A DNA stretch of 64,000 nucleotides, taken from assembly GCA_024405755.1 (NCBI GenBank), contig JAKSOD010000002.1, positions 13,729-77,728 of the forward strand, in the 5' to 3' direction. Numbering within the stretch: position 1 is the stretch's first letter; every line of letters begins with the position of its first letter. The stretch comes from Clostridia bacterium. Lineage in GTDB: Bacteria > Bacillota > Clostridia > Oscillospirales > CAG-272. Under the pieces are notes generated by a model, which made no database searches, was not told where the DNA came from, and saw only the letters and a program-made list of their open reading frames with translations. A program made the position numbers and the translations under genes. Positions 40,063 through 64,000 of this stretch are shown piece by piece.

Positions 40063-40096
40063 AATTCAGAATATTTAATTGAAAGGGCAAAATGCT

Positions 40097-45185: not shown

Positions 45186-45253
45186 AATATTTGTCGTCCT
45201 TTCAGATTATACTTCAGGGGCCGGAACACTTCCGTGCAACAGCCCCTCTTTTT

Positions 45254-45934: not shown

Positions 45935-45941
45935 GGAAGTA

Positions 45942-47072: not shown

Positions 47073-47279
47073 ATTAGTCCTTCCTTATGCCATTCGGGAT
47101 CTTGTGATAATGATAGTTTTCGGCACAGCTTTGCGTATATTCTGACGGATATGTTCCGACTTTTTTACACACTTTTCGACTATACTAATCCATTATATAC
47201 AAGTGTACCACTTTTTTGAATCTTAAATATTAATTTTTTAAAACATTTAGGAAAACATTATGTTAACAAGCAAAAGAGA

Positions 47280-47301
47280 CCGGCTGACAAATGTCAGCCG
47301 G
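47280..47301 (-). terminator. Intrinsic terminator of the large ABC operon
   Basis: CCGGCTGACA-AA-TGTCAGCCGG followed on the minus strand by TCTCTTTTG. Confidence 0.7.
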
Positions 47302-47339
47302 CCCACGGTCATTATTGCTATGATTATACCCGTGCAGTA

Positions 47340-48470
47340 TCAGTCGGCGGTAAGTCCGGAACGTTCGATACCCTGTACCAGGAATTTCTGGCAGAACAGG
47401 TACATGATGATCAGCGGAAGCATGATCAGCAGTCCGCAGGTGTTTCTGATCGCAGGATAGTAAAGGTTCTGTCCTGCATAGTTTGTTTCAAGTGACTTCG
47501 GAATAGCAACGACATCCGGCATAAGCACTGTCTTCGTTGTTGTGAAGAACAGTTTCGTGTAGAAGTCGTCGGTCCACTGCCATGAGAAGGCAAACAGGAA
47601 AACAGTGATCATCATAGGTATGGACAGCGGAAGAATGATCTGAATGAAGGTTCGGAAAGTACCCGAGCCGTCGATATAGGCGGATTCTTCAAGTTCATCC
47701 GGAACTCCGCGGAAGAACTGGCGGAGAAGGAAGATGTAAAGTCCGTTCTTGAATGCAAGACCGGTCAGTGACAGTACGATCAACGGCCAGAATGTGTTGT
47801 TGAGGTTAATACCGCCGTCAGCAACAAGTCCTTGAAGCAGTTTGCTCGTTCCGCCGTCTCCGAATATGTTGATCGAAGCAAGAATGTTATTCAGCCATTC
47901 AACATTTCCGACGCTTGCGTTACCCGAAAGGAATCCGAGTATTCCGAATACATCAAAGAAACGGAAGTGCATAAAGAGCGACAACTGCAGCGTCTGGTGA
48001 GGAACAACCATTGTCAGGATAACAGCACCGAATATCAGTTTTGCACCCTTGAACTTGAACTTTGCAAGACCGTAAGCAATAAGGCAGCAGATGAATGTCT
48101 GGATAAGAGCTGTGGATCCTGCAAGCAGAAGAGTGTTTCCGAATGCCTGGAAGTAGTTGTTTTCAAGCAGGATAAATTTGTAAATATCCAGTGAAAAATG
48201 CTTCGGGATAAGCATAACGGTAACATCAACGAAGTCTTCCTTGCTCATGAAAGATCCGGCGATCTTGCTGTAAAAGGGGAACAGAACTATATAAGCGATA
48301 CCAACGAGAAGAATGAATCTGAAAAGATACCATACGACGTTTCCAATGAAAGCCGTATTGATAAACTTTGCTTTCAGACGTTCTTTAAGAGGAGTACGTT
48401 CAAACTCGACTTTTATCTTGTTTTTGGTCTCCTTTTTGATTTTAGGAGCCATGGATTCTTGTGCATTCAT
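47340..48470 (-). CDS. Carbohydrate (CUT1) ABC permease, MalG-like, second pair
   Basis: AYGLAKFKF, EAA loop ELEESAYIDGSG, FSWQWTD, FLVQGIERSG. Confidence 0.9.
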   Translation of the reverse strand: MNAQESMAPKIKKETKNKIKVEFERTPLKERLKAKFINTAFIGNVVWYLFRFILLVGIAYIVLFPFYSKIAGSFMSKEDFVDVTVMLIPKHFSLDIYKFILLENNYFQAFGNTLLLAGSTALIQTFICCLIAYGLAKFKFKGAKLIFGAVILTMVVPHQTLQLSLFMHFRFFDVFGILGFLSGNASVGNVEWLNNILASINIFGDGGTSKLLQGLVADGGINLNNTFWPLIVLSLTGLAFKNGLYIFLLRQFFRGVPDELEESAYIDGSGTFRTFIQIILPLSIPMMITVFLFAFSWQWTDDFYTKLFFTTTKTVLMPDVVAIPKSLETNYAGQNLYYPAIRNTCGLLIMLPLIIMYLFCQKFLVQGIERSGLTAD

Positions 48471-48488
48471 TTATCTGTCCTCCTTTCA

Positions 48489-49475
48489 TCAGTCTTTACG
48501 CTGATAGAATACGAACGCTGAGAATATCGCAGCAAATATCGCAACTATCAGTATTACAATCAGGAAGTACATCCATGCCATAGCGGAACTGACTTCCTGT
48601 CCGTTGGTAGCAGTGTACTGATTGGCAATGAACTTCATCACCGTATTTGAGTCCGTCGTGAAAGAGTCGATAATAGTATAGACCGCGTTGACGAGGATCA
48701 TAGGGCTTATCATCGGGAAGGTGATCTTCCAGAATGTTTCCCATCCGGTAGCACCGTCCATCTGACAGGACTCGTAAATTGCGGGAGAGATCGACTGCAA
48801 ACCTGCAAGGAATATCAGCATCTGAACACCGGAACGGTTTACTATGTCGTAAATATCGTTGATCATCTGAACAACGTATCCAACAAGTTCAGTACCGACT
48901 TTCATATTTGAGAACAACTGCTCAATATCGATTGCGGATACTATCTGCGCCGCAGCACTCTCACCGGTTCCGTCGGCGATACTTTCATTCTCCATCATTT
49001 CCTCAACTGCGTTTGCGGCATTGATGGTCTCCATAAGACCGGTGGAAAGAATAACGGGAATGAAGAATATTGCACGGAAGACGGCACGTCCTGCCATCTT
49101 CTGATTCAAAAGCACTGCCATAAACAGTGAGAACAGAATGATGGCGGGAATGTCGAATGCCAACTCTTTAAGACCGGTAACAAGGGTCTTTACAAAGTCG
49201 GGGTTAACGAAGAGAGCCTCATTGTAGTTGGCGAAGCCGACGTTTTCAATGGTGAATCCCTCTCCGGACACGATCTTGATACGGCTGAAACTGTATTTGA
49301 TCGAGTCGAAAATAATCGGTAGATAAACAGCGACAAAACCGATAAGGAACGGCAGAATGAAGAACCAACCGGCGCGTGCTTTCTTTTTATCAAGGGAAGC
49401 AATGCGTTTTTTCTTCTTCGGAGCCTTATTCTGCGGAACGCTGACGGTCTGATTCAATTTTAACTCGTTAGTCAT
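48489..49475 (-). CDS. Carbohydrate (CUT1) ABC permease, MalF-like, second pair
   Basis: FRAIFFIPVI, FLAGLQSIS..YESCQMDGATGWETFWKITFP. Confidence 0.9.
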   Translation of the reverse strand: MTNELKLNQTVSVPQNKAPKKKKRIASLDKKKARAGWFFILPFLIGFVAVYLPIIFDSIKYSFSRIKIVSGEGFTIENVGFANYNEALFVNPDFVKTLVTGLKELAFDIPAIILFSLFMAVLLNQKMAGRAVFRAIFFIPVILSTGLMETINAANAVEEMMENESIADGTGESAAAQIVSAIDIEQLFSNMKVGTELVGYVVQMINDIYDIVNRSGVQMLIFLAGLQSISPAIYESCQMDGATGWETFWKITFPMISPMILVNAVYTIIDSFTTDSNTVMKFIANQYTATNGQEVSSAMAWMYFLIVILIVAIFAAIFSAFVFYQRKD

Positions 49476-49489
49476 TCTTTGCTCCTCCT

Positions 49490-52400
49490 TCAGTCATTAA
49501 TATCGGAAAACGATACGTAGATCGGTTCCGCACCGTTAACTTCGTCGATACGAACAGCGCCGTAACCGCTCAGAGTGTATGTATTTCCGTTGTATTCGGT
49601 AGTCGCGTCAAAGTAGTTGTAGTTGAGGATGATGGAGATTCCGCCCTCGTACTGGACGAGAACGATATTTCCGGAATCGTCGGTATACTTTGTCTTCTTG
49701 TATCCTTCTTCTTCCTCTTCTTTTTCTTCTTCGGGATCAACGGGAATTACTTCCTCAGAGTTGGGGTCTGTCATAACAACATTGATACCTTCCACGTATT
49801 TCTTGGAAAGTTCAACGGCTTCTACAGCGTAATCGTAGGTCTTTCCAGCCATATAGAGTATACCCTTCTTGGCGACCTCGTTTGTAGAATCATCAGCAGG
49901 TTCTGCGCCCTCGATTCCCTTCACGAGATCCTTGACCTCGTTGTAACTCTTGGTGACGTCATCTTTGAATTCAGCGTTGTACTTCTCATCTTTGATAAGT
50001 TCGGTATAAGCAAGTTCGGAATTGGTATAAGATACTTTGGCAAGAGATACGAAGGTATTCATAGCTCTGACGTTCTGAGATATGGTCTTATCAAGAGTCT
50101 TGACAGTCTTCTCATTGTCAGAAACTACTTTATCAGCGGCAGTCTTGGCAGAACCGGTGGTCTTTGCTTCAGCTGCAGCTATTTCAGCCTCAGCCTTTAC
50201 AGACTCGTAAACAGAAACAATTACTTCATAATCCGCGTTATCGGCATTGTAACCGGCAGCATATTCGCTTATTGCAAGAGGCTTTTCTGCTGCAATGAGA
50301 GCGACCTCGTATGCGGGCAACTTGCCGTAAGCATTGTCATAACTGGTAATTGCGTTCTGGAACTCCGCGGAAATGTTCTTGCTGTCTGCGTAAGAGTCTG
50401 TTACGGCAGCCTTTGCAGCATTTTCAGCCTCGGCAGCCGCAGTGTACTCTGCGGAATTCTTGTAATCTTTCTTGTAGTTGTTGATAAAGTCATTAAGAGC
50501 CTTGTCAGCGGCAGTCTTCTTGTCGGCAGCGGCCTTATACGCGGCATCGGAAGAATGCTTTGCGATATAATCGCTTACATATTTTTCAACTGCTGCGTCA
50601 GCGGCGCGCTTTTCGTCAAGAATGTAACTTCCCTTCTCAGCGTCTGCAAGTGCTTCGGCAGCGGTCTTGGCGGCGGCAAGAAGTTCTTTGGACTTTTCAA
50701 GGGCGGTATTGAACTTTTCGCTGTTCTCTTCGCCTTCCTTGTTGCTTTCCTTGGCATTGGCAAGCAGACCGTCGATCTCAGTGATCATGGTCAGGTATTC
50801 GGAAGCGGCAGAAGCAGCGGGAAGTTTCTTCGCTCTTGCAACAACGTCATCAAATGTTTTGAGTTTGTTCACGCCGCTCAGACTGTTGTAAAGTGCTGCG
50901 AAAGCGGCACTTGCCTTAGTCTGATATGAGTCGTATGTGAACTTGACCTGCATTTCGGCAGTTGCGATTGCAGAAGTCTCGTCAGAAGAATTAACGGCGG
51001 CTTTAAGTGCGTTGATATAATCGCGATATGCCTTGTCGACTTTATCAGCGTTCTCTTTCAGCGTCTTATAAGCGGAATCGGACTCGTAACCCTTGGAAGC
51101 GGCATCAAGTTCTGCTCTTGCAACCTCGACGTCGGATACAAGTTTCTTATAGTCAGCGGAATTGAAGTAAGCAACTTCTATACGGCTGAGTGCTTCGGAT
51201 GCTTTATTACGCTTGTCGGCAGCAGCCTTGTATTTGCTTACGATCCCGGGGACAGGAGAAACTGCGTTGAGTTTTGCATTAATGCCATCGAGTTTTGTCT
51301 TTGCTGAATTCTTTGCGGATTCAAGTGCTTTGTACTCGGCAGTTCTGCCTATATTCTCTTCCTTGGAGTCGGCTTCAAATGCTTTGAGAGCCTTATCATA
51401 TGCAGCCTTTGCGGCAGCATAATCAGCCTTTGAACCGAGGAAAGACGCTTCGTCAGAGTCAACCGCTGCCTGTTTTGCCTCGGTATTGGCAAGAGCAGCC
51501 TTGTACTCGGGAGTAAACTCATCGAGACCGGCAAGTTTCGCTTTTGCTTTGGCAACGAGATCGGCAAGTGCTTTGTACTCGGAGAATGTCTCATACTGTT
51601 CGTAGTTTTTGGCGAGGCTTTCCATGGAGCTTGTAGCAGTGGTAAGGACTTTGTTCCAATAAGCGTATTCAGGATTGTTCTTCTCGGTGATCTCATTCAT
51701 TGCAGTCTTAGCTTCATCAAGTGCTTTGACGGCTGTATTATAGGCAGCATCTGCATCAAGTTCATTCTGGTGATCGGCCTTTGCTTTCTTGAGTGCAGAC
51801 TCAGCATCGCTGAGTGCCTTTTTGAGTCCGCCGACGTAGTCGTTGAACGCTTTTTCGGCAGCCTTGTAATTTTCCGTCGCATCAACATATGCCTTGGCAT
51901 TGTCAACAGTTCCGGAAATAAAGGTCAGAGCGGATTTTGCACTGTCAAGAGCCTTCTTGTTGGCTTCACTTGCATCCTTTGCATAAGCATCGGAAGCATC
52001 ATTGTATGCCTTATAAAGAGCCGGGATCTTGGCAATACCTGCATCAACGGCAGCGACAGTTGCATTGTCGAGAAGTTCAACCTGGGCTTCAATCTTGGTC
52101 TTCTGAGAATCAACATTGCTCTGTGCTTTGGTATAAGCAGCAAGAAGTGTTGAATAGTTCTTGTTGTTGCCTTCGGAAAGAATGCTCTTGAAGTTATTCT
52201 GAGTTACCTTCCAGATATCTGCAAGTTCGGTCTTGGAAGCTGAATCAGCCTCAGCCTTTTCGGCGGCAGCTGTGGTCTCCTCTGCCTTCTTGCGGGAATC
52301 TTCGAGCATCTTTACGAGTGTCTGCATTCCAATTGTATTGGAAACCATTCCGCTTTCATCGATGGTATATCCGCCGGCGTAGCAGTTCTTGATGGACTCG

Positions 52401-55400
52401 TAGTAATGCTTTACATTGGTAATTGCATTCTTTGCGTTATCAAGCGATTCGATACGTCCGCTGTTGCGGGCTTCTTTCGCAAGTTTTTCTTCCTCAATGC
52501 GGATAGCTTCTTCCGCCTTCTTGATTGCCTCTTCCGCTTCCTTGGCGTCTGCGATTACCTCATCAGGATCGGGAACACGTTCACCGATAAGGAACTGATG
52601 TCCGATGATCTTGGACAGCTGGAGATCTTTGGTAAGATCGTTCAGAAGTTTGTAATACCTTACTACGTCATTTTTCAGTATGTCGTAACGTACGGAATAA
52701 TACTGGCTGAGGTTCATATCCTCTTTGAGTTCTTCGTAGTTCTCGTAGCAAAGTATAAAGTAAAGAGAAGCACCGTTTTCAACTGCTTTAAGCAGACTGT
52801 AACCGATATTTCCTTCCATATTAAGAGGAGATCCGGCGTACTGAGTGCTGCCGTGCAGAACGACACCGATGAAGGGTACCGCTGCGCTGGATTTGATGTA
52901 ACGGCTGGAATCAAGCGGAACGTCCACGATATAATCGACATATTTCCATACGTAAGAGTTTGCACCCTCGGTCATAATGTCGTCGTAATCGTTCGCCATC
53001 TTCTCCATAAGTTCAATGGTGGACTTTTTGGAGTCCTCACGGTTTGCGGGATCATCCTCGTCAAAGTCGGAGTTAAGGGAAGTTCCGATCGTTCCGACAG
53101 AGATCGCAGAAGTGTATCCTTCGGGGTAGTACTTCATGAGGTTTTCAGTAAGTTTGTCGTAGAAGTGGCTGAAATATGCAGCACTTATCGCAAGTTCATA
53201 ACGACCTACGTATGTCTGCTTTGTTGCGCTGTAATAGCGGCGTGACATATAGGTGTTGTTGATAGACTTGACGATATGCTCCTTCATGGTCAAACCGTCA
53301 AACAGACCATCGGAAGATGCTCTCACGTATTCGAAGTCAAAGTCCGGGAATACTTCGAGATCGTAGTTGGTCTCTTTGGAATAATCCATCAGGTCTTCGT
53401 ATCCGCTCTTGCCGCCGACGGATTTCTCCCATTTCAGGCGATACGGCACGGAGGCATAGATACCGCCGTTGGCGTAACCTGAAAGTTTGAACTTGATGTT
53501 TGAAACACCCTCTGCGGAGAGTTCATTATACATGGTCTTGATATTGTCGAAGGAGGTCATAGAAGTCATTACGTTCACGGGAACGGAAAGGATCTTCTGA
53601 ACGGTCTCCATTGTCCCGAATGTCTGGATGTAAACGGGAAGATTCTCGTTTACGTCCTCTTTTTTGAGGGATTTCAGGTTTCCGGTAGCATAGAGGTAAT
53701 CGCGGTATGCTTCCGCCATACCCATCCAGGATACCTCGTAGTAATCCTTGATATTCTTTTCCTTGGCAATGTTGTCATCAGTCAGCATTATGTAACGGAT
53801 CTTATAGTTGCCTACGTACTTACGGGAAGAAACGACGGTCCATGTTGCGTTAGCACCGACTGAAATAGCGTTTGCAAGGTTATAGGAGTCTTTCGGTCTC
53901 GGGTAGAACAGCATCTGAATGATGTTGTACTTACTGAGAGTACCGGCATGGTAAGTGGAAAGTTCTGCAAGAGCATCGCCTTCTTCGATAATGGCAACGA
54001 ATCCGCGATCTTCTTTATAGATCTCGGTATTTGTTACTTCCTTGGTCTGAGGAGTGCCGTCCTCGTTGTATACTATGTTGCCGTCCTCATCCAGTACATT
54101 CTCGGTCGTTATGGTCTGACGGGGTTCGGAGTAATTGGACACTATTCCGAAAACAGGATAACGTATTGTTTCCTGATGAGAACCGGTGATTGTGTTATAC
54201 GCGAAGTCCTGACCGTAAACTTTACCGTTAATGGTGGTTGTTGCGGAACCTGCAAGATCTTCGTGTCTGAACAGCGTTCCGGATCCATCCGGGAAGAAGT
54301 TGTACCCCGTAAAGGTTTGTTTCTTATCGTTCAGATAGTAGTTTGCGCCTGCGCCCATATAAGGCAGGATGCTGATGTTGTTGAGCTGATACAGGGACTC
54401 ATTGAAACGGAGACCGTTGGCAGGCATACGCACGCTCATTCCCCACTCGTCAAGGGTATATTCAAGTGATAGTTTGAACAGAGGCGGAGCCTTGTCGCTT
54501 CCGCTGTAACCCGTCTGGTTATGGTCCTTGTCAAGTTCTTCGTACGTATATTTAGGTACGTATGTCTTGATGTAGGATTCCACAAGTGTCAGCTCGGTAT
54601 TGGTTGCGTCGCTTGCGAAAACGTAGATATTCATGCTGCTGCATACAGGATATGCGGCGATCATTGAACTCCTCTCACGCTGGGTCTTGCACTCATCAAG
54701 AGCCTTGTGAGTATAGAATGCTCTCAGTTTGTTGAACTTGAACCATTCGTCGTTTCCGCTATCGGAAACGATTTTACTGAACATTGCGAGAGTTTTATAG
54801 TCTCTCCAATCAATGACTTTCATTTTATCGTTTCCGGCAGAGATTTCGTTGATATAATCTGCGAAAGGATCAAGGATCAGAGTCTCGAATCTCGTCTCTT
54901 CAATCATTCTCGGAACGAGCATTCTCGTTTCTTCACGACCGATACGGTACTCGATTCTGATACCGTTCTTGATGTTCTTTGCCGTTATCTGTCCGCGTTC
55001 AGCAGCCTCAACGAAACTGTACATGGTCTTGTCGGTGTCGTTGTCTCTGTAATCAATGACGATCTGAGACATGATCTTTTCCTTCGTTGAATCAACGTAG
55101 GAAGTTGCGCCGACGTCGTATGGGTTGGAGAACAGAGTCTGACCGGAAGCCATATTATAGGTGGCAACCTCACCGGTCAGGGTATCGACGAAGAGTTGAT
55201 ATCCGTTTTTCTCGTACATCAACTCCATTGTCGCGAGTTTTTCTTCGGGAGTCTTGAACTCTTTTTTAAGGTACTGTTTTACGGTTTCCTTGTAGTCGAT
55301 CTCCTCGGTTTCCTTGCCTTCGTTGTTTTTGACATAGATAATGTCAACGGCATAGGCACCGACATCGATCATGATCGTCCCGAAAAGCATCACGACAGTC

Positions 55401-55426
55401 AGAAGCAATGCAATTATTCTTTTCAT
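49490..55426 (-). CDS. Giant secreted DUF5696-like protein with a ~950-aa Ala/Lys/Tyr-rich helical insert
   Basis: Signal peptide MKRIIALLLTVVMLFG...AYA (ATG 55426 after AGGAGG); ILPYMGAG, FFPDGSG, VYGQD, YPVFG, WMGMAEAYR, VFPDFDF, VPFIGVVLHG, KAVENGA, recalled as DUF5696-type motifs; helical insert at about 52570-49700; short beta-rich C-terminus. Confidence 0.75.
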   Translation of the reverse strand: MKRIIALLLTVVMLFGTIMIDVGAYAVDIIYVKNNEGKETEEIDYKETVKQYLKKEFKTPEEKLATMELMYEKNGYQLFVDTLTGEVATYNMASGQTLFSNPYDVGATSYVDSTKEKIMSQIVIDYRDNDTDKTMYSFVEAAERGQITAKNIKNGIRIEYRIGREETRMLVPRMIEETRFETLILDPFADYINEISAGNDKMKVIDWRDYKTLAMFSKIVSDSGNDEWFKFNKLRAFYTHKALDECKTQRERSSMIAAYPVCSSMNIYVFASDATNTELTLVESYIKTYVPKYTYEELDKDHNQTGYSGSDKAPPLFKLSLEYTLDEWGMSVRMPANGLRFNESLYQLNNISILPYMGAGANYYLNDKKQTFTGYNFFPDGSGTLFRHEDLAGSATTTINGKVYGQDFAYNTITGSHQETIRYPVFGIVSNYSEPRQTITTENVLDEDGNIVYNEDGTPQTKEVTNTEIYKEDRGFVAIIEEGDALAELSTYHAGTLSKYNIIQMLFYPRPKDSYNLANAISVGANATWTVVSSRKYVGNYKIRYIMLTDDNIAKEKNIKDYYEVSWMGMAEAYRDYLYATGNLKSLKKEDVNENLPVYIQTFGTMETVQKILSVPVNVMTSMTSFDNIKTMYNELSAEGVSNIKFKLSGYANGGIYASVPYRLKWEKSVGGKSGYEDLMDYSKETNYDLEVFPDFDFEYVRASSDGLFDGLTMKEHIVKSINNTYMSRRYYSATKQTYVGRYELAISAAYFSHFYDKLTENLMKYYPEGYTSAISVGTIGTSLNSDFDEDDPANREDSKKSTIELMEKMANDYDDIMTEGANSYVWKYVDYIVDVPLDSSRYIKSSAAVPFIGVVLHGSTQYAGSPLNMEGNIGYSLLKAVENGASLYFILCYENYEELKEDMNLSQYYSVRYDILKNDVVRYYKLLNDLTKDLQLSKIIGHQFLIGERVPDPDEVIADAKEAEEAIKKAEEAIRIEEEKLAKEARNSGRIESLDNAKNAITNVKHYYESIKNCYAGGYTIDESGMVSNTIGMQTLVKMLEDSRKKAEETTAAAEKAEADSASKTELADIWKVTQNNFKSILSEGNNKNYSTLLAAYTKAQSNVDSQKTKIEAQVELLDNATVAAVDAGIAKIPALYKAYNDASDAYAKDASEANKKALDSAKSALTFISGTVDNAKAYVDATENYKAAEKAFNDYVGGLKKALSDAESALKKAKADHQNELDADAAYNTAVKALDEAKTAMNEITEKNNPEYAYWNKVLTTATSSMESLAKNYEQYETFSEYKALADLVAKAKAKLAGLDEFTPEYKAALANTEAKQAAVDSDEASFLGSKADYAAAKAAYDKALKAFEADSKEENIGRTAEYKALESAKNSAKTKLDGINAKLNAVSPVPGIVSKYKAAADKRNKASEALSRIEVAYFNSADYKKLVSDVEVARAELDAASKGYESDSAYKTLKENADKVDKAYRDYINALKAAVNSSDETSAIATAEMQVKFTYDSYQTKASAAFAALYNSLSGVNKLKTFDDVVARAKKLPAASAASEYLTMITEIDGLLANAKESNKEGEENSEKFNTALEKSKELLAAAKTAAEALADAEKGSYILDEKRAADAAVEKYVSDYIAKHSSDAAYKAAADKKTAADKALNDFINNYKKDYKNSAEYTAAAEAENAAKAAVTDSYADSKNISAEFQNAITSYDNAYGKLPAYEVALIAAEKPLAISEYAAGYNADNADYEVIVSVYESVKAEAEIAAAEAKTTGSAKTAADKVVSDNEKTVKTLDKTISQNVRAMNTFVSLAKVSYTNSELAYTELIKDEKYNAEFKDDVTKSYNEVKDLVKGIEGAEPADDSTNEVAKKGILYMAGKTYDYAVEAVELSKKYVEGINVVMTDPNSEEVIPVDPEEEKEEEEEGYKKTKYTDDSGNIVLVQYEGGISIILNYNYFDATTEYNGNTYTLSGYGAVRIDEVNGAEPIYVSFSDIND

Positions 55427-55445
55427 TTTTATTCCTCCTGTCCTG

Positions 55446-57587
55446 TTACGTTCGGTAGTTGATCTCAACAATAATGTTGGTGATGAAGCTGACGATCTTT
55501 CCGAGCAGCGTAGTAAAGAGTATTGCTATGAACATTATGAACGCCATACCGACAAGAGTGCCGAGTGACGTGACAAAGTTCTTGAAGAGTGTGTAGTCGT
55601 GAGTTACCATCATACCGACGAAAATCAAAAGTCCGGTCCAGATGAATGCAATCGTACCTATGAAGGACACGATATCAAGTTCTGCCTTGATAGCGAAGTT
55701 GGAATAAATGGTAACGGGAACTACGAGCATGGGAAGCGGCAGCAGAGAATAGGCAGTTGCAATAAAGATGTCCTTGAAACTTCCTTCGCCCTCAAACAGG
55801 GTGGTCAGACACCAGTTGGCAAGTACCCAAAGCACGAAGGGAACGAGAATACTCATAGCCTGTGAAACTATGGTAGTGTAATGTCCCTGCGGATTGGTAA
55901 GGTATCCGGAACCGATATCCTGATAGAAGAATGCGAGAATGGTTACCGCGATATAAACGAGCGAAGCACGTACGGATCCTCGTTTTTCATGTTTCAGATC
56001 CCAGAATCCGTCGAATGGGTGGAAGATCAGGTGGAAACCGTAGAGGAGCTCCTCACCAAATGTTCTCTTTCCGCCCGCAGTTGCTGCCCGGGTATTGATC
56101 TTACCTGCTTTCTTGAAGAACAGCGTGATAAGAACGATAAGTCCTACAACGATAACGGGAATCAGAAGAACATATTTCGTGATCCACTGCTGTCTGATCT
56201 CCTTGTAGGAGTCGGACCAGCCGCTTGTGTCGTAGGCTGACTCGTAATACTTCATTGCGTTTTTGTAGTCGCCGTTACGGTACATAGCATCACCGATTCC
56301 GATATACGCGGCGTCAAAGTTGGAGTTTCTCTTCAGAATCTCCATCCAGTCGTTGATCGCGCTGTCGTAGTGACGGTTGTTCTGGTTTGCCAGAGCATTG
56401 ATCAGAATGTCGCCGTACTCGGTACGCTGGAAGACGGTAATATTGTCGTTCTGGTTATCGAGGATCAGCATTTTTCCGTCGCTCAGGTATGTGATTCCGC
56501 AGATGCTGGAAAGGTTTCCGAGCTGGTTACCGGAGTCACCAAACGCGAACAGCAGGTTGCCGTCCTTATCATAGGTAAATATTTTCTGACGTCTGGTATC
56601 GATGATAGACCACGTCTGCTCCGGACCGACGGCTACGTCATGTATCATGGAAACACCGGTAATGGATCCGTCTGCCTTGTTATTGGAGATTTCGATCTCA
56701 CCGGCGGGAGGCCAGAAACCGTTTCTCGACATGACCTCAACACCGGACTGGTTGAGCAGTTTTACGGGAGCGTAGTCACCGGATTTTGATTTACCGGTAA
56801 TCGCACTCTTTACTTTGCCTTCGGAAATTGAGGATGTGGTAACGTAAATGAATCCACGTTCGTTCATAGTAATATTGTTGAACTCGGTGGAAATGTAGGA
56901 TTGGCTCATTTCTTTCTGAGCGTCTGTCTGGAATGATCTCCAGAGCTTATCCCATGCAGAAATTGTAACCTTCTGAGCTCCGACGAATTTAATAAACTCG
57001 CCGTCAATGCTCATAACGATAATACCCTGATAGGTAGTGGAAGATACTACATAAAGTCTCTCATAATCATCGACTGCAAGAGCAATGGGCTTGTAAACGG
57101 CGTCATCGTCGAACAGGCTGCTCTCAGGCTGAGGGATGATCTTGATAAACTCGTGAGAATCTCTGTCAAACAGAACGATACGGTTCTTATCGGTATCTGC
57201 TACAAAGATCTTATCCTTTGTGATATACACACCCTTGGGACCGCCGAGTTGATCGGCAATTCCTTCATCATTATAGAATTTGGAAATGGGTTCACCCTTC
57301 TGCTTGAAGTACTTATCAAGGATAACGATACGGTTGTTTGCGGTATCGGCGATATAGATATTATCTTCGTCGTCAACTTCAATGTCACCGGGATCGTCGA
57401 TCGCTTTTGCAAGTCCCATATAAGAAGAGTTGATAGTCTGAACGGGAGTGTAAGCATCCGGCGAGTAAAGTGCGTGGCCGTCGATAGAGTAGGTGTAAGT
57501 CTGGTATGATCTTACGGCACATACAGGGGCGGCGAGCACTGTCACGAGCGCGAAAATCAACGCGACCGCACTAATGATTTTTTTCAT
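55446..57587 (-). CDS. NHL-repeat beta-propeller + TPR + Yip1-like multi-TM fusion protein
   Basis: Signal peptide; NHL-like PGDIEVD..IYIADTANNRIV and PKGVYI...FVADTDKNRIV; TPR-like AYIGIGDAMYRNGDYKNAMKYY; TM helix; Yip1-like HPFDGFWDLKHEKRG followed by about 5 TM helices. Confidence 0.8.
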   Translation of the reverse strand: MKKIISAVALIFALVTVLAAPVCAVRSYQTYTYSIDGHALYSPDAYTPVQTINSSYMGLAKAIDDPGDIEVDDEDNIYIADTANNRIVILDKYFKQKGEPISKFYNDEGIADQLGGPKGVYITKDKIFVADTDKNRIVLFDRDSHEFIKIIPQPESSLFDDDAVYKPIALAVDDYERLYVVSSTTYQGIIVMSIDGEFIKFVGAQKVTISAWDKLWRSFQTDAQKEMSQSYISTEFNNITMNERGFIYVTTSSISEGKVKSAITGKSKSGDYAPVKLLNQSGVEVMSRNGFWPPAGEIEISNNKADGSITGVSMIHDVAVGPEQTWSIIDTRRQKIFTYDKDGNLLFAFGDSGNQLGNLSSICGITYLSDGKMLILDNQNDNITVFQRTEYGDILINALANQNNRHYDSAINDWMEILKRNSNFDAAYIGIGDAMYRNGDYKNAMKYYESAYDTSGWSDSYKEIRQQWITKYVLLIPVIVVGLIVLITLFFKKAGKINTRAATAGGKRTFGEELLYGFHLIFHPFDGFWDLKHEKRGSVRASLVYIAVTILAFFYQDIGSGYLTNPQGHYTTIVSQAMSILVPFVLWVLANWCLTTLFEGEGSFKDIFIATAYSLLPLPMLVVPVTIYSNFAIKAELDIVSFIGTIAFIWTGLLIFVGMMVTHDYTLFKNFVTSLGTLVGMAFIMFIAILFTTLLGKIVSFITNIIVEINYRT

Positions 57588-57597
57588 TGCTGCCTCC

Positions 57598-58470
57598 TTA
57601 ATCTTTCATACCGGACGAACCCATGGTTTCAATGATGTTCGACTGGCTTATAACGAATACCGTAATCGGGACCATCATCATAATGACCTGCGCCGCAGCA
57701 CTTGCGCCTGCACGCTTGATACCGCCGGCGGTGATCTGACCTATTGCGTAGTTGAACGATTTCAGCTGTTCGGAGTGGATATAGATCGAAGATCCGGCAT
57801 TCCACAGATCCTGGAAGCAGTAGATAATCAGAGTCAGCCAGGCGGGTTTGACCATAGGCATTGCAATGACCCAGAATGTTTTGAGTTCGCTTGCGCCGTC
57901 AAGTCTTGCAGATTCAAGAACAGCATTCGTTACGTTGGTTTCCATGAACTGTTTCATCAGGTACAGACCCAGAGTTGAGCCCCATGCGGGAATGATCAGT
58001 GCCCAGTAGGTATCAATCATACCGAGGAAACTCATCAGAATGAAGTTTGTAACTGCGGTAACGGTCTTATGGAACATAAGTGACGTACGAATGGTTTTAA
58101 ATATCCATTTACGTCCGGGGAACATGATCTTCGCAAGAGCATAGGCAGCAAGTGATCCGAAGAACAGGTTGCCGGCGGTACCCATAACGGAGACGAACAC
58201 GGTATTGAATATGTACCGTGAGAATGGGACCCATGATGTGTTCATGAGTACGAACAGATCCTTGAAGTTATTGAAAGTCGGCTTCATAACGTAGAATCTC
58301 GGAGGGAACATCCAAAGTTCGTCAAGAGGCTTGAATGCCTGCATCCATACGTAGAGCATAGGCAGGAACATGAATGCTCCGAGAATAGTGAGCATAAATG
58401 TGATGCCGAGGTCGCCGCCGGCGGATCTGTTAAGAACGACTTTATGTTTTCTTGTTCTAAGTCTTGACAT
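57598..58470 (-). CDS. Carbohydrate (CUT1) ABC permease, MalG-like, first pair
   Basis: FKPLDELWMFPP, EAA loop VLESARLDGASE, PMVKPAWLT. Confidence 0.9.
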   Translation of the reverse strand: MSRLRTRKHKVVLNRSAGGDLGITFMLTILGAFMFLPMLYVWMQAFKPLDELWMFPPRFYVMKPTFNNFKDLFVLMNTSWVPFSRYIFNTVFVSVMGTAGNLFFGSLAAYALAKIMFPGRKWIFKTIRTSLMFHKTVTAVTNFILMSFLGMIDTYWALIIPAWGSTLGLYLMKQFMETNVTNAVLESARLDGASELKTFWVIAMPMVKPAWLTLIIYCFQDLWNAGSSIYIHSEQLKSFNYAIGQITAGGIKRAGASAAAQVIMMMVPITVFVISQSNIIETMGSSGMKD

Positions 58471-58471
58471 C

Positions 58472-59419
58472 TTACTGACCTACCTTTGACAACATCTTCT
58501 TGACCAGAGAGTTAGCTCCGACCATTATAGCGAAAAGTACGACTGCTATTGCCGACGAATAACCGACCTCGAAACGGGAATGACCGTAGTCATCGAGGTG
58601 GTGCGTTATCGTCCATGCACAGTAGTTGACCGACGGGTTTCCGCAGAGGGCATTAACGACTCCTCCGAAACCGAAGGACTTTGTAATAGCCATGATAGCA
58701 CCGAACATCAACTGCGGCTTCATTGTAGGAAGGGTAACGTACCAGAGTTCCTGCCAACGGTTGCGGATTCCGTCAACGGCACCGGCCTCGTAAAGCGATC
58801 TGTCGATACCCTGAAGACCTGCGATAAATGACAGAAAGGAAGTTCCGAGGGAGGTCCACAGAGAAACTACGATACAAAGAGGCATAACGTAGTCTGCATC
58901 TTCGAAGAACTGTATTTCTTCGTTTATCAATCCCAGATTCAGCAAGGTCGCGTTGACCCAGCCGTAGGAGTCTCCGGAGAACAACGTACCCCAGATAAGG
59001 TAAACCTCACCGGAAATTGACGGTGCGTAGAAGATCAGAGTTACTATTGCTCTGATCTTCGGTCCGAGTTCGTTGATGAACCATGCAACAAGCAGGGACA
59101 TCAGGTAGGAAGCGGGACCGACGATACATGCGAAAATGAACGTATTCTTGATCGCTATCAGGAATATGTCGTCGTCAAGGAAAAGGCGGATGTAGTTATC
59201 CAGGAAAACGAAGTTAGGCATTTCGAGCAGGTTGAAGTCCGTGAAACTGACGATAATGGAGACAAGAACCGGCGCGATAGTGAACAGAATAAAGACGATA
59301 CAGTACGGGGCGATCATTGCGTATGCAACCCAGTTGCGCTTCATCTCTTTCCATGTCCACTGCAACTTTGTCATATCTTTTCTGGATACAGCCTTTTTAG
59401 TTGCTGTTTTCTGTGACAT
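58472..59419 (-). CDS. Carbohydrate (CUT1) ABC permease, MalF-like, first pair
   Basis: SFTDFNL, FYAPSISG, FIAGLQGIDRSLYEAGAVDG; start placed at ATG 59419 after AAGGAG. Confidence 0.9.
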   Translation of the reverse strand: MSQKTATKKAVSRKDMTKLQWTWKEMKRNWVAYAMIAPYCIVFILFTIAPVLVSIIVSFTDFNLLEMPNFVFLDNYIRLFLDDDIFLIAIKNTFIFACIVGPASYLMSLLVAWFINELGPKIRAIVTLIFYAPSISGEVYLIWGTLFSGDSYGWVNATLLNLGLINEEIQFFEDADYVMPLCIVVSLWTSLGTSFLSFIAGLQGIDRSLYEAGAVDGIRNRWQELWYVTLPTMKPQLMFGAIMAITKSFGFGGVVNALCGNPSVNYCAWTITHHLDDYGHSRFEVGYSSAIAVVLFAIMVGANSLVKKMLSKVGQ

Positions 59420-59456
59420 TAACTTTTTCTCCTTACTAAGATTTGATTCGAGCCGA

Positions 59457-62400
59457 TCAGTCGATCGGGTAAGATGCCTGATATGCTGCGAGAGCGTCTG
59501 CACATTCTTCAATGTACTCACAAACGGTGGCAAGAAGAATCTGCTCAGCGGTGATATTCTCTTTGATACCGCTGTCCTTCTCGGAGCTCTTGTGAATGAT
59601 CGTACTCAGAACGTCTCTGTACTGAGAAACGGCGGTCAGATACTTGCCGTCTTCGGCATTTTTAAGAGTCTCGAATTTGACCTTTGCCATTGCCTGTGCG
59701 TCTGCGCTGAGTTTTTCGTTGATGGCAATAATATCAGCGGAACAAGCCTTTGCAAGTGCTTCGCCGGCATTGCGCAGAGCATTGATGTACTCTGTTTCGC
59801 AATAGACGCTGAATGATGCCTTCTCGTCAATCGTCATAAGAGCCTTTTTGACGGCTTCGATTTCAGATGCGTACTTCTTCTTGTCTGCGTCGGAAAGTCG
59901 GAGAGAAGTATCGTAATTGAGTTTATCCCCTTCTTCGCTGAACGCATCCATCATCTGACCGAAACGCTTGCTTGCGAGGGTTTCGCCTACTTCAAGAGTT
60001 TCAAGTCCGAACTCATTGCGTTTACGGGTTATTTCCTTATTGATGGTAGCAATGTACCCGAGCAGTTCGTTTACGGGGTTGGCAGCATCGTTATATGCAT
60101 TGAGGAACGCAAACTTTGTATAACGTCCGATAATGTATGCGCCGGGATAGTTAGGAATGGAAGCGAGGTTGTCAAACTGAGAAATCAGGTTAGTGTACTC
60201 TTTGTTGGTCCAGGGCATGGATTTCAGAGCCTTGATATTCGCGGTGGCGTGTTTTGCAGAGTCACCGAGGATAGCGACCATTTCGTTGGAGTAATTGATC
60301 TGGCAGTCCGAACCGGAATGCCACTTCATGAATTCCCAGGCAGCCTCTTTATTTTCAACACCGTGTATCATAACAATCGCGGAAACGGAAGAAACCGAGA
60401 CGTTATTGATGGACTTATTGCCGTTGGCATCAACAGTCTCGATACCGGGCAGCGGTACGAATTCCCACAGACCGCGCAGCTCCGTCGCAAATACGATCAG
60501 GTGGTTGTAAGTTCCGTTGTATGAAGCGATACCGATAGGCATCTCACCGGTACGGAAACGGTTGACGAAATCGTACTTGTAGGGGAATGAATACTGAGTG
60601 AACAGATCGCACATGGTCTCGAAGGAGTCGAGAGCAACGTTGGAGTCAAGGTTGATTCTCATTCCTTCGTCAGCAAACAGTGTTCCGCCCATCTGATAGA
60701 GGAAGATCTTGTAGTCGTTGCTCAGACCTATGGTCATACTGTTCTGGCTGAGGACCGTCGCTGCTTCACGCAGGTCATCCCACGTGTCAAGGCATTCAAT
60801 ACCGAGGTCGGCAAGGATATCGGTACGGATGAACATCATCGGGAAGTTCTGTGTCTCTGGCAGTCCGTAGTAATGCATGAAGTTATCGGCATCCGGAATA
60901 CCGAGAACATACATTGCTGCGTCATTGAAGTTAGCGATGGGGTTGACAATAGGATCTCCGTTCTCATCGTACAAGGTATTGTAGTTGTTGTCTACCTTAT
61001 AATATAGGAGATCTGTAAAGCCCTTCATATCTTCGACTTCTACCAGTGCTCCGCGGATTGCGTAGTTGATAACGCTGTCGTCGCCGAGTCCGACATAGAC
61101 ATCGGGTCCTCTTCCTGACAGGATGGAAGGCAGAAGCGTTCCGCCTGCGACCAGTTTCAGATCAACGGCGATGTTGGTGGAAGGAGTGAATTCGTTGTTG
61201 ATAAGGTTACGCATGACCTGAGTCTGGTCACGGCCGCTGGACATCCAGACTTCAATGGTATCCATATTCTCCGCAACATCGGAAGCACCCATACGGTCAT
61301 AGTTACGGAAGAAACTCTGAATGAAGCTCTTGATTTCGTGCCATGCGGACTGGAAGAAGTTTGCCTTTGCTGTCGGCATCTTTTCTTCACTGCTCTGAAT
61401 CATGATATAGTCAAGTCCGAGAGGCTGAGTCTTCGCATCACTGAGCCATGTACCGAGAGAACCTATGTAACTCTTCAGCTGTTTGAGGTTCTTGGCAATT
61501 TCCGTCTCAGGGTCTGATCCCATTCTTTCAAGCAGCCATCCCACTTTTTCAAGTGTCGCAACGTTGGAACTCTTGACACCCGCGAGGGAGGTCAGTTCGG
61601 CAGCGATCTTCTTGATGATCGTAGACTGGATAATGAGGTCAATAACGGTATCGGGCATTACGCTGGAGAAAGAATAGTCGCGGTTTTCGTCAGGCTCTGC
61701 ACCGGTTAACTTCATTATATTAAGATAGGCGTTGTTTATGGTGGTCAGCGAGGAGTCAACCTTTCTGACGATATCGGACATTGTTCCGAGAGCGACTTCG
61801 AATTCAATGGTGTACTCAACACCGGCTTCAAAGTAGAATTCGCAATTGATATATTCAATGGTCTTCTCTCCGTCTGCTTTTCCAACAATTCCGTAACGGA
61901 GAGGATCAGTCTGCCAGTCGGAAGAGTAATTGAAACGAAGTTCACGTGCCTCATCAAAAGGAACTCCGTCATAGTATCCCTTGTCCCCCGGCTTTACGCT
62001 TTCATCGCTGTAAATGTAAAGGACACGTGAGGAATACATACCGTCGTTGATATTCTGACGGTAACGAGGTATGATGTTGTACATACCGCTTTCTTCCACT
62101 TTGAATGTGTACCCTACAGTCTGCATGGCGACCTGCCACTTATCGCCTCCTATGGTGTTCAGAAGCGTACGGGTGGTGTCGCAGGGACTTGTGACCGCGG
62201 AAGAACGGTCTTCAATGGGGTAAATGGTATTGGTGGAAGTATAAGCGGGAAGTTCAGCCTCGATCTTTACGACCGATGTGCCTTTCTTCTCTCCCACATA
62301 CTTTGCGGAATACTCATCATACGAGGGAAGTACATCAATCGGGCACAGGGTGATGCTTTCAATCACCATAGGCTCACTGACACCCTCAAAGGACAGTTCA

Positions 62401-63137
62401 TTCTCGCCGGCTTCAAGAACGAATTCGAAGCAGTCTTTATAGAAACCGTCCACGTCTTTCAGCGTGTACTGACGCCATTCGGGAGCCATAAGGATAGACG
62501 CACGGATCTCGTTGTTGTCAATATCAAGTTTGAAAGGACGTACGGTTCCGTCGCTCAGTGTATTCTTATCAAACTGAGCGGGATCTTCAATGTAGTCTGT
62601 TCTCCACATTTTGTTGAGGGTTATGTAATACGCCTCTGAAAACGGGACGTTATTGTTGATACGGAAAATACGCTGGATCGAAGTATCCTTGGACTTTTCG
62701 ATAGTTTTTCCGTCAGCAACACTGATGCTCTCTTCAATAGTCGGCCAGTATCTGATGCGAATGGTGTACTTCGCAGTCTTCGGAATGTTGACTTTGTATA
62801 CCAACTTTCCGGAAGCGTCAACGGCAAGTCCGTCAACACCGTCATACTTTTCGCCTCCGACTTCCGCGACGAGAGCGGTGGTAGAAGTCTTATCGTAATC
62901 ACGTCCGGAGATCACGATATCGGCCTCAGCCTTCGGATAAAGTGTTTCGTCGGAATACTTTTTCTCGTATTCCTCGTACGAAATTAAACCGAGCAACTCT
63001 TTTGCGTTCGCAATGGCTTTGCTGGTCTCGGACATCTCACTACCCGTATCGGCAGCCGATACAGGCACGAAGAAGCAACCGATAACAAAGATTGCGGACA
63101 ACATAAGAGCGACTACCCTTTGAAATTTCGTTGCCAT
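59457..63137 (-). CDS. Very large extracellular solute-binding protein with N-terminal beta-sandwich (CBM-like) domains and a C-terminal helical extension
   Basis: Signal peptide; two jelly-roll-like segments (YKVNIPKTAKYTIRIRY; KIEAE...YTFKVEESGMYNI); SBP_bac_1-like core (GRDQ, GRGPDV, YGLPETQNFPMMFIRTDIL, FRTGEMPIGI, AWEFMKW); ATG 63137 follows AGGAGG. Confidence 0.85.
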   Translation of the reverse strand: MATKFQRVVALMLSAIFVIGCFFVPVSAADTGSEMSETSKAIANAKELLGLISYEEYEKKYSDETLYPKAEADIVISGRDYDKTSTTALVAEVGGEKYDGVDGLAVDASGKLVYKVNIPKTAKYTIRIRYWPTIEESISVADGKTIEKSKDTSIQRIFRINNNVPFSEAYYITLNKMWRTDYIEDPAQFDKNTLSDGTVRPFKLDIDNNEIRASILMAPEWRQYTLKDVDGFYKDCFEFVLEAGENELSFEGVSEPMVIESITLCPIDVLPSYDEYSAKYVGEKKGTSVVKIEAELPAYTSTNTIYPIEDRSSAVTSPCDTTRTLLNTIGGDKWQVAMQTVGYTFKVEESGMYNIIPRYRQNINDGMYSSRVLYIYSDESVKPGDKGYYDGVPFDEARELRFNYSSDWQTDPLRYGIVGKADGEKTIEYINCEFYFEAGVEYTIEFEVALGTMSDIVRKVDSSLTTINNAYLNIMKLTGAEPDENRDYSFSSVMPDTVIDLIIQSTIIKKIAAELTSLAGVKSSNVATLEKVGWLLERMGSDPETEIAKNLKQLKSYIGSLGTWLSDAKTQPLGLDYIMIQSSEEKMPTAKANFFQSAWHEIKSFIQSFFRNYDRMGASDVAENMDTIEVWMSSGRDQTQVMRNLINNEFTPSTNIAVDLKLVAGGTLLPSILSGRGPDVYVGLGDDSVINYAIRGALVEVEDMKGFTDLLYYKVDNNYNTLYDENGDPIVNPIANFNDAAMYVLGIPDADNFMHYYGLPETQNFPMMFIRTDILADLGIECLDTWDDLREAATVLSQNSMTIGLSNDYKIFLYQMGGTLFADEGMRINLDSNVALDSFETMCDLFTQYSFPYKYDFVNRFRTGEMPIGIASYNGTYNHLIVFATELRGLWEFVPLPGIETVDANGNKSINNVSVSSVSAIVMIHGVENKEAAWEFMKWHSGSDCQINYSNEMVAILGDSAKHATANIKALKSMPWTNKEYTNLISQFDNLASIPNYPGAYIIGRYTKFAFLNAYNDAANPVNELLGYIATINKEITRKRNEFGLETLEVGETLASKRFGQMMDAFSEEGDKLNYDTSLRLSDADKKKYASEIEAVKKALMTIDEKASFSVYCETEYINALRNAGEALAKACSADIIAINEKLSADAQAMAKVKFETLKNAEDGKYLTAVSQYRDVLSTIIHKSSEKDSGIKENITAEQILLATVCEYIEECADALAAYQASYPID

Positions 63138-63428
63138 TATGGTTCCTCCTGCCATGGTTTTTGCGGTTAATTCCCGCCGGAATGTTTTTTCCGCCGATAT
63201 TCGCGTCTCTGCGCGCCCAAAGGCTCGTCAGACGCTGCTTTCGGCAACTTGCCCTGAGCCTTCCGGAACACAGCAGGAGGCGGATAGTCTGCTATGCTCC
63301 GTTTTTTTAATCCGATCAGCACCGCACTTCCGCTGCGGTATGACGGAAAAATAAATTTCAAGGCTCTGCTTCCGCTGTCGTTTTTGAGGGAAACACACCG
63401 CGGTAGGGCAAAATACCATAAAATTTAT
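63138..63428 (-). promoter_or_regulatory. Long structured 5' leader with anti-Shine-Dalgarno and anti-anti-SD segments (candidate translational switch)
   Basis: mRNA CCUCCUGCUGUG (63280-63269) complements CAUGGCAGGAGG (63156-63145); alternatively CGGAGCAUAGCAG (63301-63289) pairs with CUGCUGUGUUCCG (63276-63264). Confidence 0.5.
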
Positions 63429-63434
63429 GTTGTT

Positions 63435-63463
63435 ATAATACCATAAACTTTAAAAACTGTCAA
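63435..63463 (-). promoter_or_regulatory. Sigma-A-type promoter of the large ABC operon
   Basis: Minus strand TTGACA-17 nt-TATTAT with an extended -10 TG. Confidence 0.7.
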
Positions 63464-63965
63464 TGGGTTATTATATATATAAATAAATCTAACGAAAATA
63501 TCAGTATATAAATTATTATCTTGCATTTCACGGTCAAATGACCGCGTGCGAGACCGCTGACGGATTTTTTCGTCATTGTTCACATTACGTTTTTTTCACG
63601 GTAATTTTAATTTACGTATTTTCGGTATACCGTTTCCGAAGTAAAGCAAATACTTCGCTTTTCCTTGTCCGGCAATTTAAAAAATGAACTCGTTTTAATA
63701 AAAAAGTAAATTTTATTTACCCGCTTTTTTCGTTTTGATTGCACGCGCAACCATTTATTCAGCATATTCTTTTGCGCTGATTGCACAAATTTCAGTGAAA
63801 AAGTTCTACATCTGTACATTTTGCACAAATCGTTCGCAACTTCTGATTTTTCTCTGTTCCAGCTTTTACATATCTCCTAATTTCTTCTTTTTTGCTGTAT
63901 TTCTTCTATTTTCTTCCATATTTGTTTTATCGTTACAATTATGCGTTGTTTATTGCAAACAAACG

Positions 63966-63998
63966 CCCCGGGGATATGTGCAAATCATTTCCCCGGGG
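63966..63998 (-). terminator. Probable terminator of an upstream minus-strand gene outside the window
   Basis: CCCCGGGGATATG...CATTTCCCCGGGG hairpin followed on the minus strand by CGTTTGTTT. Confidence 0.45.
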
Positions 63999-64000
63999 AT

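Follow-up and report, generated by a model that had tools for sequence, protein, structure and literature searches.

We analyzed a 64,000-nt stretch of a Clostridia bacterium assembly (GCA_024405755.1, contig JAKSOD010000002.1, positions 13,729 to 77,728; hereafter the window), which carries, on its minus strand between positions 47340 and 63137, seven genes that on balance we take to be one copy of a conserved two-module cassette for glycan capture and import in gut Clostridia. In transcription order the genes encode a giant solute-binding protein (SBP), a first pair of ATP-binding cassette (ABC) permeases (P1F and P1G), a membrane protein with NHL, TPR and Yip1 domains (YIP), a protein of the DUF5696 family, and a second permease pair (P2F and P2G). 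What we observed, and describe below, is the gene order, the domains and fold of the products, the synteny and copy number of the cassette, its presence in RNA libraries, and an orphan ATPase gene elsewhere in the genome. The window forms part of an assembly of 2.12 Mb in 187 contigs that is 97% complete.

Taking the most plausible start codon for each of the seven open reading frames (ORFs), the intergenic gaps computed from the coordinates were 37, 1, 10, 19, 14 and 18 nt in the direction of transcription. This agrees with an earlier interpretation of the window made from its letters alone (the sequence-only reading), which had described seven co-oriented genes with gaps of 1–37 nt, and the gene order and every domain named there were likewise matched by Pfam and NCBIfam. 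Neither database returned an ABC_tran domain or a Pfam glycoside-hydrolase (GH) family in any of the seven proteins, and the same scans bore out the claim that the operon holds one SBP for two permease pairs and no ABC ATPase.

The main evidence for a conserved cassette came from 20-kb stretches around DUF5696 genes in 20 genomes from across the phylum (the distant sample) and from 80 loci of close relatives (the close sample), all of the latter from uncultured gut or rumen Clostridia. The same seven-gene order was found in 13 of the 20 distant loci, with a permuted order (YIP-DUF5696-P2F-P2G-SBP-P1F-P1G; L045, L048, and L050) in three, the portion from YIP to P2G alone in three, and a divergent arrangement in one; 56 of the 80 close loci held all seven genes in order, and the other 24 were ordered subsets on shorter loci. 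The expectation that the gene set would recur in other Firmicutes was thus confirmed by neighborhood analysis. Among 101 DUF5696 genes, the immediate upstream neighbor was YIP in 96 of the 97 cases that could be tested and the immediate downstream neighbor was P2F in 93 of 94, and this adjacency holds across families within the phylum. YIP, DUF5696 and the second pair were also found by themselves (L038, L042, L043, and L140), as were SBP and the first pair (L137). Since each set occurs alone or permuted, we regard the cassette as two modules that are usually joined, module A comprising SBP and pair 1, and module B comprising YIP, DUF5696 and pair 2.

DUF5696 was present in 32 of 401 phylum-wide genomes, representing 19 of 278 genera, and was strongly multiplied in some genomes of 2.2–3.0 Mb, with approximately 10 copies in G044 (2.2 Mb), approximately 10 in G054, and 12–17 in G088. 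Several of the carrier genomes are assembled as one contig and may thus represent isolates. Such many-cassette genomes hold 4–10 giant SBP paralogues, and by our own arithmetic the cassettes make up about 5% of the DNA in multi-copy genomes. In G044, cassettes adjoin LacI or GntR regulators (three loci) as well as GH38, GH2, GH27-type, GH35, GH43+RicinB, and GH5 genes, which is the pattern of a polysaccharide utilization locus and fits a role in carbohydrate catabolism.

The SBP (1226 aa; 59457–63137, minus strand, as for all operon features given below) starts at an ATG behind GGAGGA and is composed of an N-terminal hydrophobic signal, which is its single hydrophobic segment, two modules resembling carbohydrate-binding modules (CBMs) of families 6 and 35, a helical bundle, an SBP_bac_1 domain, and a helical C-terminal tail. 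The SBP_bac_1 (cluster-type sugar-binding) domain (PF01547; 60321–61217) scored 55.7 bits against a cut-off of 26 in Pfam, residues 647–945 of the 1232-aa ORF corresponding to profile positions 9–299 of 307, while no NCBIfam family was found for the protein. An AlphaFold2 model of residues 36–645 of the same ORF, with a predicted local distance difference test score (pLDDT) of 90.7, contained two β-sandwiches. The CBM6/35-like first of these (62337–62924) matched the CBM35 structure 4qb1 (Z 13.3, root-mean-square deviation (rmsd) 2.0, 117 of 128 residues aligned) and the CBM6 structure 2cdp_B (Z 13.2); the second, CBM35-like (61386–62276; model range 259..555), matched 3wnk (Z 12.2) and 4qb2 (Z 12.0), with an rmsd of 2.0 and 125–127 residues aligned, and has a four-helix bundle (helices 424–540) seated inside it. 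SBPs of the window’s clade are also longer than others, by way of the helical C-terminal tail.

The window’s SBP carries VIGC at residues 18–21. A simple regular expression for the lipobox matched 7 of 40 giant SBP homologues (27 genes from close-relative and 13 from distant loci; L035–L054 and L063–L133), one of the seven matches lying in an over-extended N-terminus, and most of the homologues have a type I signal-peptidase-like site, SA↓A(D/E), instead of the lipobox cysteine. Lipobox-less giant SBPs are unusual among Gram-positive binding proteins, and given the scarcity of the motif, the usual Gram-positive lipid anchor may be missing. We also noted that one SBP frame in genome G172 contains an in-frame TAG.

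All four permeases showed a BPD_transp_1 domain (28.3–39.9 bits in Pfam; cut-off 26.4) and an EAA loop. In pair 1, P1F (MalF/UgpA-like, 315 aa, which is the length of its homologues; 58472–59419) has the loop EAGAVDG and P1G (MalG/UgpE-like, 290 aa; 57598–58470) the loop ESARLDG. P2F (328 aa; 48489–49475; loop ESCQMDG) and P2G (376 aa; 47340–48470; loop ESAYIDG) both carry extra extracytoplasmic inserts, in the form of an enlarged loop in P2F and an insert of about 50 residues in P2G. A loop motif that we defined ourselves was matched in 86 of 86 P1F, 87 of 87 P1G, 76 of 95 P2F, and 83 of 88 P2G homologues; the core loop residues of pair 2 were invariant in the alignments, and E235, G241, and P254 of P2F were invariant across 39 sequences. 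Scores against NCBIfam equivalogs fell far below their cut-offs, indicating that none of the permeases is an orthologue of a named transporter. With a single SBP gene, the operon departs from the CUT1 importer rule of one binding protein per permease pair, and no SBP dedicated to pair 2 was present in the 20 distant and 80 close loci.

Some CUT1 importers share an orphan ATPase, as with MsmX in Bacillus subtilis and MsiK in Streptomyces, and the sequence-only reading had proposed searching the genome for such a gene. A single permease-less UgpC/MalK-type ATPase gene was indeed found (G000:C166:39764–40876; NF008653, 481.9 bits, cut-off 432), flanked by genes for an S1-domain protein and a CPBP protease, with no permease nearby. 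Seventeen BPD_transp_1 genes occur in the genome, 13 of them outside the operon; 12 of these lie within approximately 1.2 kb of an ABC ATPase ORF, and the remaining one is on a 2.3-kb contig and is not judgeable. The nearest ABC ATPase ORF to the four operon permeases is 7.3 kb away and not of the MalK type (75 bits). Among judgeable genes, the operon pairs are the only permease pairs of the genome that lack their own ATPase gene, which by elimination would assign the orphan ATPase to them. Five other carrier genomes, one of which holds approximately 10 cassettes, each contained one orthologue of this ATPase (60–73% identity), with a permease within 1.5 kb in none of the five, and no ABC ATPase match was detected in the 20 distant loci. 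ABC-ATPase-like ORFs in 6 of the 80 close loci were rejected as partners, being weak (24–82 bits vs. 823 for self) and situated either some 1.5 kb upstream or on the other strand. The only other loci of the genome with both SBP_bac_1-type and permease genes (G000:C1:159002–163019 and C1:25796–29573) each have their own ATPase gene.

The DUF5696 protein (1978 aa; 49490–55426) has a single N-terminal hydrophobic segment and is predicted to be secreted or N-terminally anchored. It scored 393.2 bits against PF18952 (cut-off 25.6), which is below the canonical members (425–748 bits) because of its inserts, and its first 985 residues show conservation over their full length in more than 1200 proteins (E 1e-10 or better). 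An AlphaFold2 model of the core (residues ~1–960; 52547–55426; pLDDT 82.1, predicted template-modeling score 0.77) gave an N-terminal β-sandwich followed by a (β/α)8 barrel, and the top Foldseek matches of this model were GH129 structures, namely the GH129-like 3,6-anhydro-D-galactosidase 5opq (E 2.7e-20) and 5wzr (NagBb; E 1.8e-17). A VIA structural comparison with GH129 aligned 543–553 of 610–658 residues, or almost the whole chain, with a Z of 24.6 and an rmsd of 4.1–4.4 (for 5wzq_A: Z 24.6, rmsd 4.4, 543 of 610 aligned); Z values were approximately 17 for GH101 and 15–16 for GH36 and its relatives, and GH13 corresponded in the barrel only. At the profile level, hhalign against four Pfam Glyco_hydro_129 (PF11308) proteins, taken from Clostridial genomes of the same phylum, returned a probability of 90.3 and an E of 1.5e-6 over 322 columns that take in both barrel and C-terminal domain. 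The C-terminal β domain of DUF5696 (49490–49726, including the stop codon), which aligns with that of Glyco_hydro_129, contains N1935, invariant in 41 of 41 family members. The claim that the operon has no recognizable classical glycoside hydrolase therefore held in sequence scans but not by fold, DUF5696 being GH129-like with homology at the profile level.

Polar residues conserved across the 41-member DUF5696 alignment were D380 (37/41), D407 (39/41), D787 (38/41), R796 (39/41), H858 (36/41), and E883 (41/41). D787 follows strand 4 of the modeled barrel, and in the GH129-type superfamily the nucleophile is carried after barrel strand 4. At the sequence level, PF11308 gave no match at E values up to 1 in any of 23 diverse DUF5696 proteins, sequence searches of PDB chains found no relative, the profile search returning only coiled-coil noise from helical tails, and NCBIfam returned no family for the protein. 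We dropped a catalytic mapping onto Asp435 of NagBb, its nucleophile, and the corresponding Asp486 of DagB via the four Glyco_hydro_129 proteins, because these match NagBb and ZgGH129 only outside the active site. Having a GH129-like fold and profile homology without sequence membership, DUF5696 is filed here as a distinct family with a GH129-like fold and not as a member of GH129. We consider catalysis by DUF5696 likely, as a prediction.

Between barrel and C-terminal domain, the window’s DUF5696 protein has an Ala/Lys/Glu-rich helical insert of 991 residues (49727–52546; A 19%, K 12%, E 10%). The linker at this site is 20 residues long in 20 of 20 canonical DUF5696 proteins and 108–1120 residues long in 20 members of the window’s clade; as far as these sequences go, the insert is specific to that clade. 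Both of its ends sit on the catalytic body, and so a long helical hairpin would be the simplest reading. Insert length was correlated with SBP length (Spearman rho 0.45, n = 61; L055–L134), which is a hint only, as the sequences are related and not independent. A tandem-repeat search of the insert yielded only a 21-nt duplication and a (CTT)9 run; the insert is therefore not a recent repeat array. The (CTT)9 run, which is on the plus strand at 49705–49732, encodes the poly-Glu stretch EEEKEEEEEE just ahead of the C-terminal domain, and reads from the RNA runs described below seemed to be cut there.

YIP (713 aa; 55446–57587) matched Yip1 (56 bits), NHL (36.4 bits), and TPR_16 in Pfam, as well as ScyF-like NHL in three stretches in NCBIfam. 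Its layout runs from a signal peptide through an NHL propeller, TPR, one transmembrane (TM) helix, and a cytoplasmic linker to a multi-TM Yip1 domain (PF04893, cut-off 28.6; residues 519–687; 55527–56033), with TM-like segments at residues 7–25 and 473–491 and four more within 572–696. In 8 of the 20 distant loci, the NHL/TPR half, with its own TM helix, and the Yip1 half are separate adjacent genes. A complex prediction of P2F, P2G, and YIP residues 460–713 reached a score of 0.59, compared with 0.02 for the best of three controls, with a partner pLDDT of at least 71 and agreement between runs in at least 86% of contacts. When the score was calibrated, 58 of 80 solved complexes and 2 of 110 mismatches passed the mark; those passing with 0.60 or less comprised only 7 of the 80 solved complexes and both of the mismatches. 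The sequence-only reading had cast the propeller/Yip1 protein as a membrane scaffold, and the prediction lends weak support to a contact of its Yip1 region with pair 2. Gene adjacency, fusion or fission of the two halves, and this one complex prediction suggest that YIP may be a scaffold for pair 2. A precedent exists in YknW, a Yip1-family protein reported to modulate the assembly of the ABC transporter YknXYZ (PMC4887032).

We also examined whether signals and RNA data place the seven genes in one transcription unit. The best of 29 promoter-like sites in 45000–64000 (TTGACA-17-TATTAT with a TG before the -10 hexamer; 11/12 matches) is located at 63435–63463, and the best intrinsic-terminator-like hairpin of the scan (12 pairs, 8 G-C) at 47277–47304, just past the last stop, which is where one promoter and one terminator had been proposed. 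As a class, promoter-like sites were at chance level in this 19-kb scan (29 found, 28.2 expected), and thus only the placement and quality of the site at 63463–63435 count, as placement and not proof. If used, it would give a putative untranslated leader of approximately 290 nt upstream of the SBP start (63138–63434). No credible ORF was found in the leader, Rfam returned nothing at the gathering score in leader or operon, and the 3 kb of contig beyond the leader contain no regulator gene.

Two metatranscriptome runs of one study (X1 and X2) hold the stretch. Contigs from X1 cover 47330–63155 and include one of 9417 nt (48808–58224) that reaches from P2F into P1G with nine differences. Depth in X1 was approximately 12 in the operon, 0–4.5 in four bins of 45000–47535, and 0.05 in 63386–64000, and the contigs start at 47330 (X1) and 47310 (X2), at the terminator-like hairpin. 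These sharp coverage edges suggest RNA. Run X7, which holds next to none of the stretch, was not used, and X3, whose kind is uncertain, served as a probable DNA comparison only.

From these observations we infer a mechanism that is conditional as to catalysis, substrate, every protein-protein contact, and the choice of ATPase. Module A would be a CUT1-type ABC importer, in which the CBM6/35-like modules of the SBP would retain a polymer or a large oligosaccharide on the cell surface and the SBP domain would pass fragments to P1F/P1G. Extracellular DUF5696, with its GH129/GH101-like glycosidase fold, would cleave or trim the captured glycan, and the NHL/TPR/Yip1 protein would keep DUF5696 at the membrane and sit against the second pair. 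Pair 2 may import the product, receiving it directly from the enzyme complex or by way of the same SBP; that DUF5696 feeds this pair is suggested by gene adjacency. Both pairs, with their EAA coupling loops intact, could be driven by the single orphan UgpC/MsmX-type ATPase. A bolder version, which we put forward tentatively and consider rather doubtful, would make the cassette a novel type of machine by which Gram-positive bacteria use glycans, the Firmicute counterpart of a Sus system: DUF5696, as a surface glycosidase of a GH129-like but undescribed family, would be held by the NHL-TPR-Yip1 adaptor directly on the SBP-less permease pair such that hydrolysis and import are physically coupled, the CBM-bearing SBP would serve the other pair, and, in the window’s clade, the helical arm of DUF5696 (up to ~1100 residues) and the helical tail of the unlipidated SBP would assemble a wall-spanning surface complex.

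Several results weigh against a coupled capture and import cassette. For the enzyme, Pfam scans of the 23 diverse DUF5696 proteins yielded a single weak GH97 match (1/23) and otherwise no glycoside-hydrolase family. In the hhalign alignment, D787 falls on a conserved PF11308 Asp ten residues past the guessed nucleophile Asp, the presumed acid/base Glu position of Glyco_hydro_129 aligns to the non-conserved E820, and neither the 41-member alignment nor hhalign yielded a conserved acid/base residue or catalytic pair. The same DUF5696 part is found beside very different glycoside hydrolases, and it could be a generic binding or docking part. For the assembly, the YIP-P2 score lies in a range where a passing score is wrong more often than not, and the partner ATPase is assigned by elimination only. 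One locus, L135 (G044:C5), has SBP, P1F, P1G, a split YIP, and DUF5696 and apparently no P2 pair, only 813 bases with an opposite-strand ORF remaining past DUF5696; together with module A alone in L137, this indicates that the modules can work apart. The window copy itself has no adjacent regulator or classical glycoside hydrolase. Finally, the RNA-library contigs, which cover the genes together, prove neither a single transcript nor freedom from DNA carry-over.

Some of these points bear on the alternative that survives best, namely that DUF5696, although descended from a glycosidase fold, is not catalytic and acts as a surface receptor for pair 2, in the manner of an SBP or SusD, binding the glycan and docking on the enlarged P2F/P2G loops with the NHL/Yip1 part as anchor. 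We consider this unlikely. A receptor would account for a pair 2 without its own SBP, for module B standing alone in four loci, and for the extracytoplasmic inserts of P2F and P2G; however, the module-B-only genomes hold 4–10 giant SBP paralogues that could serve pair 2. The variable Glu position, the missing acid/base residue, and the company of GH38, GH2/27/35, GH43, or GH5 genes are likewise consistent with a receptor, but DagB, a ZgGH129-like protein, is an active enzyme without the NagBb acid/base residue (PMC5698469). Moreover, the full three-domain GH129 architecture is retained in DUF5696, and several polar residues that may line a pocket are conserved family-wide, most strongly D787, D407, and D380, all of which favors the enzyme that our two-module reading proposes.

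A further alternative, to which we give less credence still, is that there is no machine at all: two ordinary, independent CUT1 importers would be co-transcribed with two autonomous surface proteins, their order being kept by co-regulation. That modules occur alone and in either order, and that the sole test of contact gave weak support, fits this view. Co-regulation of autonomous parts sits poorly with the near-constant adjacency of YIP to DUF5696 (96/97) and of DUF5696 to P2F (93/94) across families, and with NHL/TPR and Yip1 parts that are fused or split depending on the locus. Most giant SBPs lack a lipobox by the regular expression and hence would need some other form of retention, and SBP and DUF5696 have gained helical extensions in the same clade, which also counts against this alternative.

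It is very improbable that the cassette serves the cell’s own envelope, through export, remodeling, or recycling of wall or capsule polysaccharide, for although genes for a DegT aminotransferase, a Bac_transf protein, and two GT4 glycosyltransferases lie directly downstream and the long DUF5696 arm could span a wall, none of 100 related loci contains these neighbors (25 of the 100 have alaS near the cassette), a terminator divides them from the operon and RNA-contig depth drops there, paralogous cassettes stand beside LacI regulators and catabolic glycoside hydrolases, and BPD_transp_1 permeases with an SBP are, as type I ABC systems, importers.

Compared with known systems, the cassette belongs to a known kind, that of Gram-positive glycan loci built on ABC importers that share an ATPase. 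Like MsmX/MsiK-type CUT1 systems, it has an SBP_bac_1 protein and EAA-loop permeases of the MalF/UgpA- and MalG/UgpE-like types but no ATPase gene in the operon, while the genome carries a solitary MalK/UgpC-type ATPase gene at another site; unlike them, its SBP is three times the usual size, bears two CBM6/35-like modules, and in most relatives has no lipobox, and there is a second pair without its own SBP and two large accessory proteins between the pairs. DUF5696 shares with GH129 enzymes the β-sandwich, (β/α)8 barrel, C-terminal β domain, and conserved Asp after barrel strand 4, but differs in its 10–14% identity with no Pfam or PDB sequence match, some 280 extra core residues, the 991-residue helical insert ahead of the C-terminal domain, and the co-encoding of a Yip1-type protein and an ABC permease pair. 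Gram-positive polysaccharide utilization loci (gpPULs) bring a transporter, a regulator, and glycoside hydrolases together. As in these, an ABC importer is co-encoded here with carbohydrate-active proteins, and the G044 cassettes have regulators and glycoside hydrolases and are multiplied approximately 10-fold; in contrast to gpPULs, a fixed seven-gene core recurs as a unit, and the window copy stands without such neighbors.

The likeness to Sus systems of Bacteroidota is one of analogy, in that surface capture, a surface enzyme, and a transporter form a repeated cassette with substrate-specific enzymes and regulators; there is no homology, and the envelope is Gram-positive, with ABC permeases in place of a TonB-dependent SusC. 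As in the YknWXYZ system of Bacillus (PMC4887032), a Yip1-family membrane protein is encoded with membrane parts of an ABC transporter. YknYZ, however, is a MacB-type exporter with a membrane-fusion protein, whereas the present pair is of the type I importer class, and here an extracellular NHL propeller and TPR are joined to the Yip1 domain or encoded next to it. Our literature search for a described system of such design gave only this YknW precedent, and the literature searched contains no description of a fixed core of two permease pairs combined with an NHL-Yip1 adaptor, a DUF5696 protein of GH129-like fold, and a giant SBP that bears CBMs and mostly lacks a lipobox. The cassette is common in the sampled phylum, yet no paper naming DUF5696 or PF18952 was found, although supplements were outside the search and locus tables there might name them. 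If our reading is correct, DUF5696 would be a candidate new glycoside hydrolase family, a function would be given to a bacterial NHL-Yip1 protein, and the cassette would provide a case of an ABC importer pair without its own binding protein, as well as suggesting a way in which uncultured Clostridia of gut and rumen, despite their tiny genomes, capture polysaccharides.

The remaining observations concern the surroundings of the operon in the window. The downstream block of DegT-type aminotransferase, Bac_transf, and two GT4 glycosyltransferase genes occupies 42976–47072 (minus strand), between the operon and alaS (40079–42751, plus strand), and looks like a local insertion; a functional link between the operon and these glycosyltransferase genes was rejected on the count of related loci given above. 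Further along, the spoIIIA sporulation genes for SpoIIIAA, SpoIIIAB, and SpoIIIAE (33855–39865, minus strand) mark the organism as a spore-former, and a tRNA gene is located at 29290–29361 (minus strand).

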